Of a DNA stretch of 64,000 bases, positions 1 to 3,143 are shown one piece after another (the stretch's first letter is position 1; each line of letters opens with the position of its first letter). A model generated the notes under the pieces. It saw only the letters and a program-made list of their open reading frames with translations. It searched no databases and was not told the origin of the DNA. The stretch comes from an archaeon GW2011_AR15. Its GTDB lineage: Archaea; Nanobdellota; Nanobdellia; Woesearchaeales; GW2011-AR15. The position numbers and the translations under genes were made by a program. The stretch covers positions 672,001-736,000 of the forward strand of contig CP010425.1 of assembly GCA_000830295.1 (NCBI GenBank), in the 5' to 3' direction.

Positions 1-528
1 TAATATATCTGTAAGGCTTGTTATTATAATAAGGTTGAATAGCAGATGTGAGCCAGCAAAAGTCAGTATTCTGGCAAAACTGCTTCCCATCATGAAATAC
101 AGGGAAGAGGCTATCAGCTCATAGACAATTGTCAGGGCAATCAGAGAAGTGACCAAAGGAAGACCAATAAAAAGATTTGACAGCAGAACCACGGCAGTAA
201 GCCCTATCACCGACACAAATGATGTATAGTTGAATTTTTGGCCAACAGCATCAGCAACAACCAGTCCCGCCCATCCTACGACAAGGGAGAGTATAATGTC
301 CCTGTAGACAAAGGAGACCATCAGGGTTGTATAGAGCACAAGGTCAATCCCCAGACTGCTCTTGAAAAACCTGTGGTATATTTTTGACAGGCCTGCGGCT
401 GCTATGAAAATAGCAGCAAAGAATATCTGCCTCAGCACGCCTGACATCAGGACGATGATAATAAAAATAAGCAGAATGACTCCTGTATTCCTGCTCTTCA
501 GCTTTTTGAAGGTTTCTTTAAGGTCCAT
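1..528 (-). CDS. Multi-pass membrane protein, ECF S-component-like (runs off window start)
   Basis: Read manually, not in ORF track. ATG at 528 gives MDLKETFKKLKSRNTGVILLIFIIIVLMSG...SLGIDLVLYTT...SHLLFNLIII, open to base 1; TATA-like sequence about 30 nt upstream. Resembles 17378..17908. Confidence 0.75.
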   Translation of the reverse strand, partial: MDLKETFKKLKSRNTGVILLIFIIIVLMSGVLRQIFFAAIFIAAAGLSKIYHRFFKSSLGIDLVLYTTLMVSFVYRDIILSLVVGWAGLVVADAVGQKFNYTSFVSVIGLTAVVLLSNLFIGLPLVTSLIALTIVYELIASSLYFMMGSSFARILTFAGSHLLFNLIIITSLTDIL

Positions 529-576: not shown

Positions 577-586
577 TTTAAATATA
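577..586 (+). promoter_or_regulatory. TATA box positioned for a leaderless transcript starting near the uORF ATG at 608
   Basis: TTTAAATATA, 31 nt before ATG 608, the spacing seen for other leaderless genes in the window. Confidence 0.6.
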
Positions 587-607
587 CTCTCCGCCTACTA
601 TTTCCCT

Positions 608-652
608 ATGTACTCAATCTGGAAAACACTGAGCGTAGTAGTGGCAAACTAG
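608..652 (+). CDS. Putative valS leader peptide MYSIWKTLSVVVAN
   Basis: ATG..TAG 14-aa ORF with GTA GTA GTG run, 94 nt upstream of valS, followed by hairpins and T-tracts. Confidence 0.55.
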   Translation: MYSIWKTLSVVVAN

Positions 653-746
653 TTTCCAGCGGCTTTTTTCTTCTTATCAGAGAGATTCACATTACCTGAA
701 GAGAAAGCTTTTTATTGAGAAAATTATAACAGAAGGGAAGAATAAT

Positions 747-3143
747 ATGGAACTGCCTCAGAGATACGATGCAAAAGAAGCTGAAGCCAAGTGGCAGAAG
801 TTCTGGGAGAAAAATAAAATCTATGCATATAATGAAAAAGATAAGAAGAAAGAGACCTATTCCATAGATACTCCGCCCCCTACAGTCTCAGGCAGCATGC
901 ATATCGGCCATGCTTTCTCATATTCACAGCAGGATTTTGTTGCCCGGTACAAAAGGATGAAAGGGTTCAATGTTTTCTATCCCTTCGGCACAGACGACAA
1001 CGGCCTTGCAACAGAGAAACTTGTGCAGAAAAACAGGAAGGTCAATCTGAGGAAAATACCAAGGACAGAAGCTATAAAGATCTGCCTTGAATTTCTGAAG
1101 GAAGAAAGGCCAAAATTTGTTCAGGACTGGAAAAACATAGGGATGAGCTGTGACTTTAGTGTGATGTATTCTACAATTGATGATATGTCCAGGAAAATAT
1201 CCCAGAGGACATTCCTTGAGATGGCCAAAAAAGGCCTTGCATACAGGAAAGAAGCACCAATTATATGGGATACGATGTTCCAGACTGCAATTGCCCAGGC
1301 AGAGCTTGTGGACAGTGAGATTGATTCCATTTTCAACGACATAGTTTTCAGGACAGAAGGCAGTGATGAGCTTATAATAGCCACTACAAGGCCAGAGCTG
1401 ATAGGTGCATGCGTTGCTGTTTTTGTGCATCCGAAAGACAAAAGATACAGGAAGCATGTCGGGAAGACTGCAATTACCCCGCTGTATAATGCAAAAGTCC
1501 CTGTCCTTGCAGATGAGAAAGTAAGCATGGAGAAAGGCACAGGAATAGTGATGTGCTGCACTTTCGGGGATCAGACAGACATTGAGTGGTATAAGCAGTA
1601 TAAGCTTCCCCTTAAGATGCTGATAAACCCTGACGGCACAATGAATGATGCAGCTGGCAGATACAAGGGCATGAAGGCAGATGAGGCAAGAAAAGCAACC
1701 ATAGAGGACCTGAAGCAGGCAAAACTATTGAAGAGCCAGAAGGCAATAAAGCATGTAGTGCAGATTGGCGAAAGGTCAGGGCAGCCTGTTGAAATAATAA
1801 ATTCAAAGCAGTGGTACATAAGCTATCTTGATAAGAAGGATATGTTCCTCAAGGCCTCTGAAAAGCTGGGCTGGTATCCAAAGCATATGAAGCACAGGCT
1901 TGACAACTGGATAAAAGGGCTGAACTGGGACTGGTCAATATCAAGGCAGAGGCATTTCGGCGTGCCCATTCCTGTATGGTATGACAAAACAGGGAAGATA
2001 TACTATGCAGATGAGTCCCAGCTTCCTGTTGATCCTGTTGCAGACAGGCCAAAGGGAGTTCCTGAGAAAGTGGATCTTATACCTGAAACAGATGTTTTTG
2101 ATACATGGTTCACTTCAGGCAGCTCGCCTTTCCTGGCGATAGAGCTCATGCCAAAGGAAACACAGGAAGAGCTGTTCCCTATGAGCCTGAGGCCGCAGGC
2201 GCATGATATAATCAATTTCTGGCTGTTCTATACAATGGCAAAGACACAGCTTATACACAGGAAAAACCCCTGGAAGGACGTCATAATCTCAGGCTGGGCA
2301 CTTGACCCGCACGGAAGAAAGATGTCCAAATCAAAAGGGAATGTAGTTGTGCCTCAGGATATGATACAGAAATATAGTGCAGATGCCCTGAGGTTTTGGA
2401 CAGCAGGCAGCAAGCTCGGGGACGACATGCCTTTCCAGGAGAAAGACCTTGTGACAGGGCAGAAGACAATAACCAAATTATGGAACGCCTCAAAGTTTGT
2501 ACTGATGCACCTTGAGGATTATAGATATGAAAAAGTCGAGCTGGAGATACTGGATAAATGGCTTCTTGCAAAGCTCCAGAAACTGGTTAAGAAGTGCACA
2601 GAGCATTTTGATGCATATGAATATTCAAAGGCAAAGCAGGAATTTGAGCTGTTTTTCTGGCAGGTATTCACAGACAACTATCTGGAGCTGGCGAAGGACA
2701 GGCTATATAATCCCGGGAAGTATAACAAGACCGCAAGGAAGTCAGCGCAGTTTGCCCTTTATGAGGCCCTGCTTAACCTCCTGAAATTAATAGCGCCGGT
2801 GATGCCTTACATAACCGAGGAGATATACCAGCTTTACTTTGCTGAAAAGGAGAAGGAAAAGAGCATCCATATCTCGCACTGGCCTGAATATTCCGAATCA
2901 TATATTGATAAGAATGCCGAGGAAACAGGGGACTTGGTTGTAGGGATACTACAGACAGTAAGAAAATTCAAATCAGAAAAATCCCTTTCACTGAAAGCAG
3001 AGCTGAGCTCAATAATAATCTCCTGTTCAGCATCACAAAGGAAAAAGCTTGAGCTTGTCCTGCAGGACATAAAAGCCATTACAATAGCAGAGGACATAGA
3101 GTTCAGGGAGAGCAAGGAATTCTCTCTTGAAATAAAAAATTAA
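747..3143 (+). CDS. valS: Valine--tRNA ligase (archaeal type)
   Basis: DTPPPTVSG..HIGH and KMSKS motifs, GTGIVMCCTFGD editing domain, DWSISRQR. Confidence 0.97.
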   Translation: MELPQRYDAKEAEAKWQKFWEKNKIYAYNEKDKKKETYSIDTPPPTVSGSMHIGHAFSYSQQDFVARYKRMKGFNVFYPFGTDDNGLATEKLVQKNRKVNLRKIPRTEAIKICLEFLKEERPKFVQDWKNIGMSCDFSVMYSTIDDMSRKISQRTFLEMAKKGLAYRKEAPIIWDTMFQTAIAQAELVDSEIDSIFNDIVFRTEGSDELIIATTRPELIGACVAVFVHPKDKRYRKHVGKTAITPLYNAKVPVLADEKVSMEKGTGIVMCCTFGDQTDIEWYKQYKLPLKMLINPDGTMNDAAGRYKGMKADEARKATIEDLKQAKLLKSQKAIKHVVQIGERSGQPVEIINSKQWYISYLDKKDMFLKASEKLGWYPKHMKHRLDNWIKGLNWDWSISRQRHFGVPIPVWYDKTGKIYYADESQLPVDPVADRPKGVPEKVDLIPETDVFDTWFTSGSSPFLAIELMPKETQEELFPMSLRPQAHDIINFWLFYTMAKTQLIHRKNPWKDVIISGWALDPHGRKMSKSKGNVVVPQDMIQKYSADALRFWTAGSKLGDDMPFQEKDLVTGQKTITKLWNASKFVLMHLEDYRYEKVELEILDKWLLAKLQKLVKKCTEHFDAYEYSKAKQEFELFFWQVFTDNYLELAKDRLYNPGKYNKTARKSAQFALYEALLNLLKLIAPVMPYITEEIYQLYFAEKEKEKSIHISHWPEYSESYIDKNAEETGDLVVGILQTVRKFKSEKSLSLKAELSSIIISCSASQRKKLELVLQDIKAITIAEDIEFRESKEFSLEIKN

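Follow-up and report, generated by a model that had tools for sequence, protein, structure and literature searches.

The valS gene (valine--tRNA ligase) of the groundwater DPANN archaeon GW2011_AR15 is preceded by a short ORF with three valine codons close to its end. On comparative sequence evidence this ORF is genuine: a conserved leader with cognate codons, and not the only one in its lineage. We propose with moderate confidence that it controls valS in cis as a leader-peptide gauge of Val-tRNA(Val) charging, and that it belongs to a set in the Woesearchaeales (Val-valS, Ile-ileS, Thr-thrS and others). The sensing half of this proposal appears well supported across relatives; the output, a choice between termination and read-through, is one that we infer.

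The locus lies near the start of the window, by which we mean the whole 64,000-nt stretch analysed (contig CP010425.1, positions 672,001 to 736,000, forward strand); the host genome is a single contig of 1.16 Mb. A sequence check placed every feature of the first-pass annotation of this DNA (TATA box, ATG at 608, Val codons, stems and T-run) at the coordinates it had been given. The features of the locus, in window coordinates, are as follows.

577..584, + strand: TATA box of the leader promoter, an exact match to the TTTAWATA consensus, 31 nt before the leader ATG
608..652, + strand: leader ORF of 14 codons plus TAG, with ATG at 608 and stop at 650-652; peptide MYSIWKTLSVVVAN
619..625, + strand: 5′ arm of hairpin P1, in leader codons 4-6; perfect 7-bp inverted repeat, also found by the repeat search
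635..643, + strand: three Val codons, the candidate sensor, followed by two further codons and then the stop
653..659, + strand: 3′ arm of P1, beginning at the first base after the stop, so that the Val codons and the stop lie inside P1
661..673, + strand: 5′ arm of predicted hairpin P2, a pyrimidine tract containing T6 at 664-669, 12 nt past the leader stop
698..709, + strand: 3′ arm of P2, a purine tract predicted to pair with 661-673 in the MFE fold
709..716, + strand: T5 (709-713) plus ATT, abutting P2; candidate termination point, overlapping an alternative promoter
731..745, + strand: purine-rich stretch 5′ of the valS ATG, without a canonical Shine-Dalgarno (SD) 5-mer
747..3143, + strand: valS, valine--tRNA ligase, 798 aa (NF009687, 1034 bits against a cut-off of 738)

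The valS start codon aligned with residue 1 in most relatives. The neighbouring gene (1-528, minus strand) is divergent from valS, and the 218-nt gap between them is therefore a promoter region. No ilvC gene was found in the GW2011_AR15 genome, which makes the synthetase a sensible target of regulation. In six relatives (G002, G003, G009, G010, G028 and G034) valS was matched as two pieces within one open frame, with about 100 nt unmatched after about residue 230, which indicates an insertion in the enzyme. In G004, a member of the same genus, an extra 20-codon ORF with its own SD (L002:1422-1503) lies between the Val leader and valS, with a one-base overlap between its stop and the valS start.

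The promoter of the leader is of the type that predominates in this genome. Exact TATA matches in GW2011_AR15 are most frequent 30-32 nt ahead of the start codon (52, 25 and 20 genes); most first genes here are therefore leaderless. The ATG at 608 had been noted as lying at leaderless spacing, and its distance from the TATA box indeed matches the TATA-to-start spacing of the genome. In 30 of the 35 Val, Ile and Thr leaders, the best TATA (0-1 mismatch) is 28-32 nt upstream of the ATG. An SD 5-mer was found in 6 of the 298 GW2011_AR15 genes with a -30 TATA versus 143 of the 888 without one, and the two elements thus rarely occur together. The leader ORF is thus probably translated from a leaderless mRNA. 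Matches to bacterial sigma-70 promoters near the locus were discounted, the host being an archaeon.

Comparison of 61 distinct valS loci for SD and TATA elements separated those with a Val uORF from those without. Of the 10 loci with a Val uORF, eight have an SD 5-mer before valS and two a -30 TATA, versus four with an SD and 28 with a -30 TATA among the 51 loci lacking the uORF; in close relatives without the leader, valS itself is at the leaderless position. A single transcript starting at the leader and running into valS fits both this split and the leaderless valS found where the leader is absent. The first-pass annotation had raised the possibility that the TATA-like element at 704-716 is a separate valS promoter, and this suggestion fared poorly. 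The element has two mismatches to the consensus and starts 38 nt before the valS ATG, a distance unlike the leaderless spacing and unlike the -41 to -56 seen for SD-led genes with their own promoter, and the spacer of the GW2011_AR15 locus contains no TATA with at most one mismatch. In relatives the T-run/TATA-like element lies anywhere from about 21 to 62 nt from the valS ATG, yet its position is fixed against P2. A better TATA match was found somewhere in the leader-valS spacer of five of nine relatives; at least some of these therefore have a second promoter, and weak initiation at 704-716 may occur.

The leader is conserved together with its cognate gene. valS was present in all 41 related genomes searched, and homologous Val-tailed uORFs of 9-14 codons were found 5′ of valS in 13 distinct Woesearchaeota/Nanoarchaeota sequences, spread over several genera of the family and at least two further families. 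These 13 leaders came from the valS upstream regions of relatives, a pattern scan of GTDB genomes, a JGI metagenome scan and a protein-seeded scan. The GTDB pattern scan returned 53 stretches, mostly chance bacterial matches, with five leaders among them, three of which duplicated loci already in hand; the JGI scan returned six stretches, which yielded one new Val leader. All four Val codons are used across the 13 leaders (GTA 16, GTG 18, GTC 7, GTT 11), and the last Val codon is separated from the stop by 0, 1 or 2 codons in 2, 10 and 1 of them, respectively. The uORF and its Val run are therefore kept in relatives with synonymous codon changes, a pattern that the first-pass annotation had named among its checks; the loss of either in relatives, which it had set as a refutation, did not turn up.

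The codon runs are specific to the synthetase that follows. We scored a tail wherever an ATG ORF of 6-30 codons, at most 250 nt upstream, carried at least three of one residue in its last six codons. By this rule a Val tail was found in 8 of 27 valS upstream regions, with every other residue at two or fewer; an Ile tail in 13 of 27 ileS upstream regions, with other residues at one or fewer; and a Thr tail in 13 of 30 thrS upstream regions, where the runner-up was Leu with four. All sequences are from metagenome-assembled genomes that are phylogenetically related, and these counts therefore overstate independence. The reading of the uORF as a chance ORF was ruled out by the cognate specificity of Val/valS, Ile/ileS and Thr/thrS.

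Two loci depart from the common form. In relative G009 the RNA structure is kept and the uORF is broken by an in-frame TAG, with no Val codon in frame. In L018 and L169, which belong to other families, a second type of Val leader was found, in which the last Val codons form the 5′ arm of a small hairpin straddling the stop. TAG is the stop of 22 of 39 Val, Ile and Thr leaders, versus 289 of 1187 called genes in GW2011_AR15.

A further scan of the GW2011_AR15 genome took ATG ORFs 6-40 codons long that contain three or more identical residues in a row and have an exact TATA box 24-36 nt before them. Eleven matches were obtained, five of them intergenic; the runs in these five are of Val, Ile, Tyr, Phe and Pro, and valS follows the Val ORF and ileS the Ile ORF. 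The short ORFs found before other genes of this genome are listed below.

L095:385-426, genome 936785-936826, + strand: ileS leader, a 13-codon leaderless ORF with four terminal Ile codons; ileS at L095:511-3648
L096:2593-2658, genome 1078393-1078458, - strand: thrS leader, a 21-codon leaderless ORF; thrS at L096:582-2528 (-)
L094:353-403, genome 241553-241603, + strand: Tyr leader, a 16-codon leaderless ORF with five Tyr codons; gene at L094:484-1251
L093:404-448, genome 165204-165248, + strand: Phe leader, a 14-codon leaderless ORF with four Phe codons; operon at L093:571-2009
L096:3899-3943, genome 1079699-1079743, + strand: Pro leader, a 14-codon leaderless ORF with three consecutive Pro codons
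L135:1558-1584, genome 288358-288384, - strand: Asp/Asn ORF, 8 codons, leaderless, of alternating Asp and Asn codons

The gene downstream of the Ile leader is ileS (TIGR00392, 812 bits), and homologues of this leader were found in 13 of 27 relatives, three other families included. The Ile codons of these leaders pair with a downstream box, with changes matched on both sides (for example in G006, G010 and G024). In G018 this box is 8 nt upstream of the SD, in G038 it reaches into the SD region, and it is not followed by a U-run. The Ile codons used are ATC and ATT; ATA accounts for 2 of 61, versus 53% of the Ile codons in the genes of the genome. The thrS ORF of GW2011_AR15 is a degenerate copy of a conserved leader of 19-28 codons, closed in relatives (13 of 30 loci) by 3-7 Thr codons and found in other families of the order too. 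The thrS leaders have a small hairpin made of the last two codons, the stop and the six bases after it, and this hairpin is kept through many different sequences. The part of the thrS leader peptide before the Thr run is also conserved, a feature superfluous for a pure codon sensor.

The remaining ORFs precede genes other than synthetases. The gene after the Tyr leader encodes a biopterin-dependent aromatic amino-acid hydroxylase (PF00351; NF008877 at 204 bits, below the cut-off), similar to phenylalanine-4-monooxygenase, the product of which is Tyr. This gene was found in only one of the 41 genomes searched, that of GW2011_AR15 itself, and the Tyr leader has therefore apparently been adapted to a gene of recent acquisition. 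The operon behind the Phe leader encodes two proteins without a family match and pterin-4a-carbinolamine dehydratase, the cofactor-recycling partner of the same hydroxylase; no T-run follows the Phe leader, and by eye a CCUCC segment could pair with its ORF or with the SD. The Pro leader is divergent from the thrS leader and precedes a weak Lrp/AsnC-like regulator gene. The Asp/Asn ORF lies 63 nt 5′ of an archaeal-type PEP carboxylase gene (TIGR02751, 575 bits) and could be another cognate sensor (oxaloacetate leading to Asp/Asn) or a product of chance. No cognate-run leader was found before leuS or metS of GW2011_AR15. The look at other synthetase genes for cognate uORFs that the first-pass annotation had advised thus found them before ileS and, in relatives, before thrS.

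Both hairpins named by the first-pass annotation were recovered in the sequence. The 619-625/653-659 repeat was found as such, and the second hairpin appeared in the MFE fold as 661-673/698-709 followed by T5, with 12 pairs, two of them G-U, and one bulged U at 669. Independent folds of single leaders from relatives also returned them, with a P1-equivalent hairpin in 9 of 10 leaders and P2 in all 10; the sequences of the arms vary between species and the pairing is maintained. A run of T5-6 directly follows the 3′ arm of P2 in 7 of the 10 leaders and is absent in G004, G006 and G003.

Tests of these folds against shuffled sequences gave mixed results. Over the 10 leaders, six had z-scores below -2.3 and the mean was -1.83. 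For GW2011_AR15 itself the fold of 606-760 had a z of +1.2, 180 of 200 dinucleotide shuffles being at least as stable, and the leader core a z of +0.99. Pairing was present in 82.9% of the cells of the model alignment versus 53-61% when the partners were slid. In the covariation count, made in the MAFFT register so that register shifts visible by eye are uncounted, 103 of 500 column shuffles reached the observed pairing, which makes the count not significant, and only three pairs change on both sides. Since shuffles reach the observed pairing, the structure of the leader RNA appears conserved but not proven by covariation. A covariance model of P1 plus P2 (R1) gave one match per genome in 9 of the 20 family genomes, each immediately 5′ of valS. 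Over 151 genomes of the order, run with stricter Infernal filters, it gave two matches, GW2011_AR15 and G007, both of the same family. Among the genomes searched, this specific valS RNA motif was found only in the family to which GW2011_AR15 belongs.

In the interval 400-900 no Rfam model matched at E up to 1 on either strand, and a scan for consensus terminators found none. In GW2011_AR15, runs of T5 or longer are located at 134 of the 360 gene ends with room for one; 61 of the 134 lie within 15 nt past the stop, and most are without a hairpin. Such runs being the usual mark of gene ends here, both T6 at 664-669 and T5 at 709-713 are plausible termination points. In the MFE fold of the full GW2011_AR15 leader, the pyrimidine tract at 665-673 pairs with 737-745, just 5′ of the valS ATG, so that P2 and this RBS-masking helix are alternatives. 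By eye, a short motif a few bases past the leader stop (655-663) recurs among the Val leaders; 11 of 17 thrS leaders have it too, as do the Pro and Phe leaders of this genome. The recurrence of this motif suggests one portable module re-targeted by a change of codon run.

We envisage that the leader works as follows. Transcription would start about 30 nt past the TATA box at 577-584, placing the mRNA 5′ end at or next to the ATG at 608, where a ribosome would load on the leaderless end and read the 14 codons. When Val-tRNA is abundant, the ribosome would cross the Val codons (635-643), terminate at 650-652 and depart. With the ribosome gone, P1 (619-625/653-659) could close over the Val codons and the stop, P2 (661-673/698-709) could form with the T-runs at 664-669 and 709-713, and most polymerases would stop before valS. 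When Val-tRNA is scarce, a ribosome held on the Val codons would cover the 5′ arm of P1, so that P1 would close only after the ribosome leaves; the open P1 would mean less termination and more transcripts running into valS. The stalled ribosome itself would be the anti-terminating agent, and the link from open P1 to the polymerase is, like translation of the ORF, stalling, termination at the T-runs and the direction of the response, presumed from the arrangement of these elements. A search for sequencing runs with this DNA listed 20 DNA runs and no RNA run.

The folding calculations bear directly on this last step. When RNA under a ribosome stalled on the Val codons was masked, predicted P2 was unchanged in all eight leaders computed. 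No RNA antiterminator was found, either in the masking folds or in folds of the RNA made before the 3′ arm of P2, in which a nearby purine box is the sole partner of the pyrimidine tract. The first-pass annotation had proposed that stalling at low Val-tRNA controls read-through into valS; of this, the conserved cognate sensor stood, and the switch did not emerge from masking. Masking as for a ribosome at the stop lowered P2 in two of the eight leaders (to 0.27 in G005 and 0.52 in G003), which would imply the opposite polarity. Pairing of the 3′ arm of P1 with the purine box in the P2 loop was considered as an antiterminator and rejected as too weak (5-6 pairs across a long loop). A frame entered by read-through of the stop codon was also set aside, as by eye it is open through P2 in GW2011_AR15 and closed early in G004 and G012. 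A stalled ribosome could plainly act as the antiterminator in the thrS leaders and in the second Val-leader type, since there the last sense codons form a hairpin 5′ arm: the final Thr codon and the codon after the run in thrS, and the last Val codons in the second Val type.

Three other readings were weighed against transcriptional control. The main rival, though an unlikely one, keeps the Val-codon sensor and moves the read-out to translation or mRNA fate: leader and valS would be constitutively co-transcribed, and occupancy of the leader would choose between pyrimidine/purine pairings and thereby set access to the valS RBS or the stability of the mRNA. The 665-673/737-745 pairing, formed in place of 698-709 in the full-leader fold, speaks for it, and the ileS leaders point the same way, their Ile codons pairing with a box near the SD (G018) or over the SD region (G038) with no U-run. 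The poly-Cys leaders of mycobacteria are an experimentally established precedent (10.1101/834739). Against it, the valS SD was not consistently sequestered in the six relatives folded (6/6), the RBS pairing is specific to GW2011_AR15, and the T5-6 run fixed to P2 in 7 of 10 leaders is left without a role.

Less probable still is a leader of inverse polarity, in which a ribosome reaching the stop would sit at the base of P2, just behind the polymerase, and so suppress termination at the T-runs; one stalled on the Val codons would leave both untouched, and starvation would lower valS. In the leaders analysed P2 begins 8-15 nt after the stop codon, and masking at the stop lowers P2 in the two leaders given above (G005 and G003, of eight) while masking at the Val codons does not. 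The Val run lies about 25-35 nt 5′ of the T6 run, and in bacterial expressome work this is approximately the spacing at which a ribosome touches the polymerase. Such logic is, however, not homeostatic for a synthetase, would be perverse for a Tyr leader before a Tyr-making hydroxylase-like gene, and runs opposite to the known cognate-codon leaders; to our knowledge, every one of these (the trp, his, thr, ilv and pheST attenuators) has the other polarity. Finally, the uORF might be unlinked to valS, a separate micro-gene or untranslated transcript with its own promoter and terminator, with valS served by a promoter at 704-716. The T6 run 12 nt past the stop and the hairpin with T5 do resemble ordinary gene ends, and 704-716 is TATA-like, with better spacer TATA boxes in the five of nine relatives mentioned. 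We hold this very improbable: it leaves unexplained both the cognate tails before valS, ileS and thrS and the SD on leader-bearing valS as against the leaderless valS elsewhere, and its proposed promoter has two mismatches and, at -38, fits neither promoter-spacing class of the genome. An independent micro-gene was accordingly set aside on the cognate specificity of the tails.

Control of valS by a sensor of Val-tRNA charging thus remains the reading that we prefer. An extension of it, which we regard as evenly balanced between right and wrong, is that the Woesearchaeales (DPANN) possess a 'ribulon' of portable leaderless sensors in which the stalled ribosome antiterminates on archaeal transcription machinery. 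The module would consist of a consensus promoter, an ORF of 9-28 codons ending in a cognate run, a hairpin free to close once the ribosome is gone, the shared motif and a U-run, and would be re-targeted by change of the codon run to valS, thrS, ileS and amino-acid genes of recent acquisition such as that of the hydroxylase, with its Tyr run.

In bacteria, attenuation by leader peptides is textbook knowledge, and it relies on coupled transcription and translation. No paper on archaeal leader-peptide attenuation was found by full-text search, which left subscription journals mostly outside, so that an older report is possible; the exact search phrases occurred in none of about 8.4 million texts. 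In PMC2965389 the word 'archaea' appears solely within the reference list. The mechanism itself may be new, given its leaderless start, its codon run beside the stop codon and the lack of an evident antiterminator. If the proposal is true, archaea with a eukaryote-like transcription machinery would steer RNA polymerase or mRNA fate by ribosome position, and genome-reduced DPANN symbionts unable to make valine would tune their synthetases to tRNA charging. The 'ribulon', if real, would provide direct evidence for transcription-translation coupling in archaeal gene control. Small, well-defined elements of about 110 nt would then offer a handle on archaeal coupling and termination.

The closest known systems are the classical leader-peptide attenuators of E. 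coli, namely pheM-pheST, trpL, hisL, thrL, ilvL/ivbL and leuL, and the leaderless poly-Cys short ORFs of mycobacteria. As in the E. coli attenuators, a short ORF with a cognate codon run lies between promoter and gene, a hairpin and U-run, here predicted, are located downstream of the leader ORF, and, as in pheM-pheST, the target gene encodes an aminoacyl-tRNA synthetase. Unlike the E. coli attenuators, the Val leader is found in an archaeal host with a TBP/TFB promoter, begins with a leaderless start instead of an SD, carries its codon run at the extreme C-terminus (0-2 codons from the stop), has no 2:3 antiterminator detectable in the masking folds, and matches no Rfam leader family. In archaea oligo-U alone terminates the polymerase. 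The sensing half would work like that of a bacterial attenuator, and the antiterminator, one defining feature of that family, is missing from the predicted folds. In Firmicutes valS, ileS and thrS are usually controlled by T-box riboswitches, which bind uncharged tRNA directly and need no translation. The Val leader resembles T-boxes in purpose, as charging of the cognate tRNA would set synthetase expression through termination or antitermination; no T-box matched in 400-900 at E up to 1.

In mycobacteria, leaderless short ORFs with poly-Cys runs (Ms5788A and others) are described as cysteine-responsive attenuators: their Cys codons base-pair with the SD of the following gene, and regulation takes place at translation (10.1101/834739). 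The Val leader shares with them the leaderless short ORF as first cistron with the cognate run at its 3′ end and, on the reading proposed here, would share the grouping of several loci into a 'ribulon' under ribosome pausing and the prevention of an RNA duplex by a stalled ribosome. It differs in that its Val codons lie in the predicted P1 loop, with a hairpin and T-run intervening, and in that full-length folds leave the valS SD of relatives mostly unpaired. The ileS leaders are nearer than the Val leader to the mycobacterial design, and pairing of codons with the SD was found in one relative, G038.
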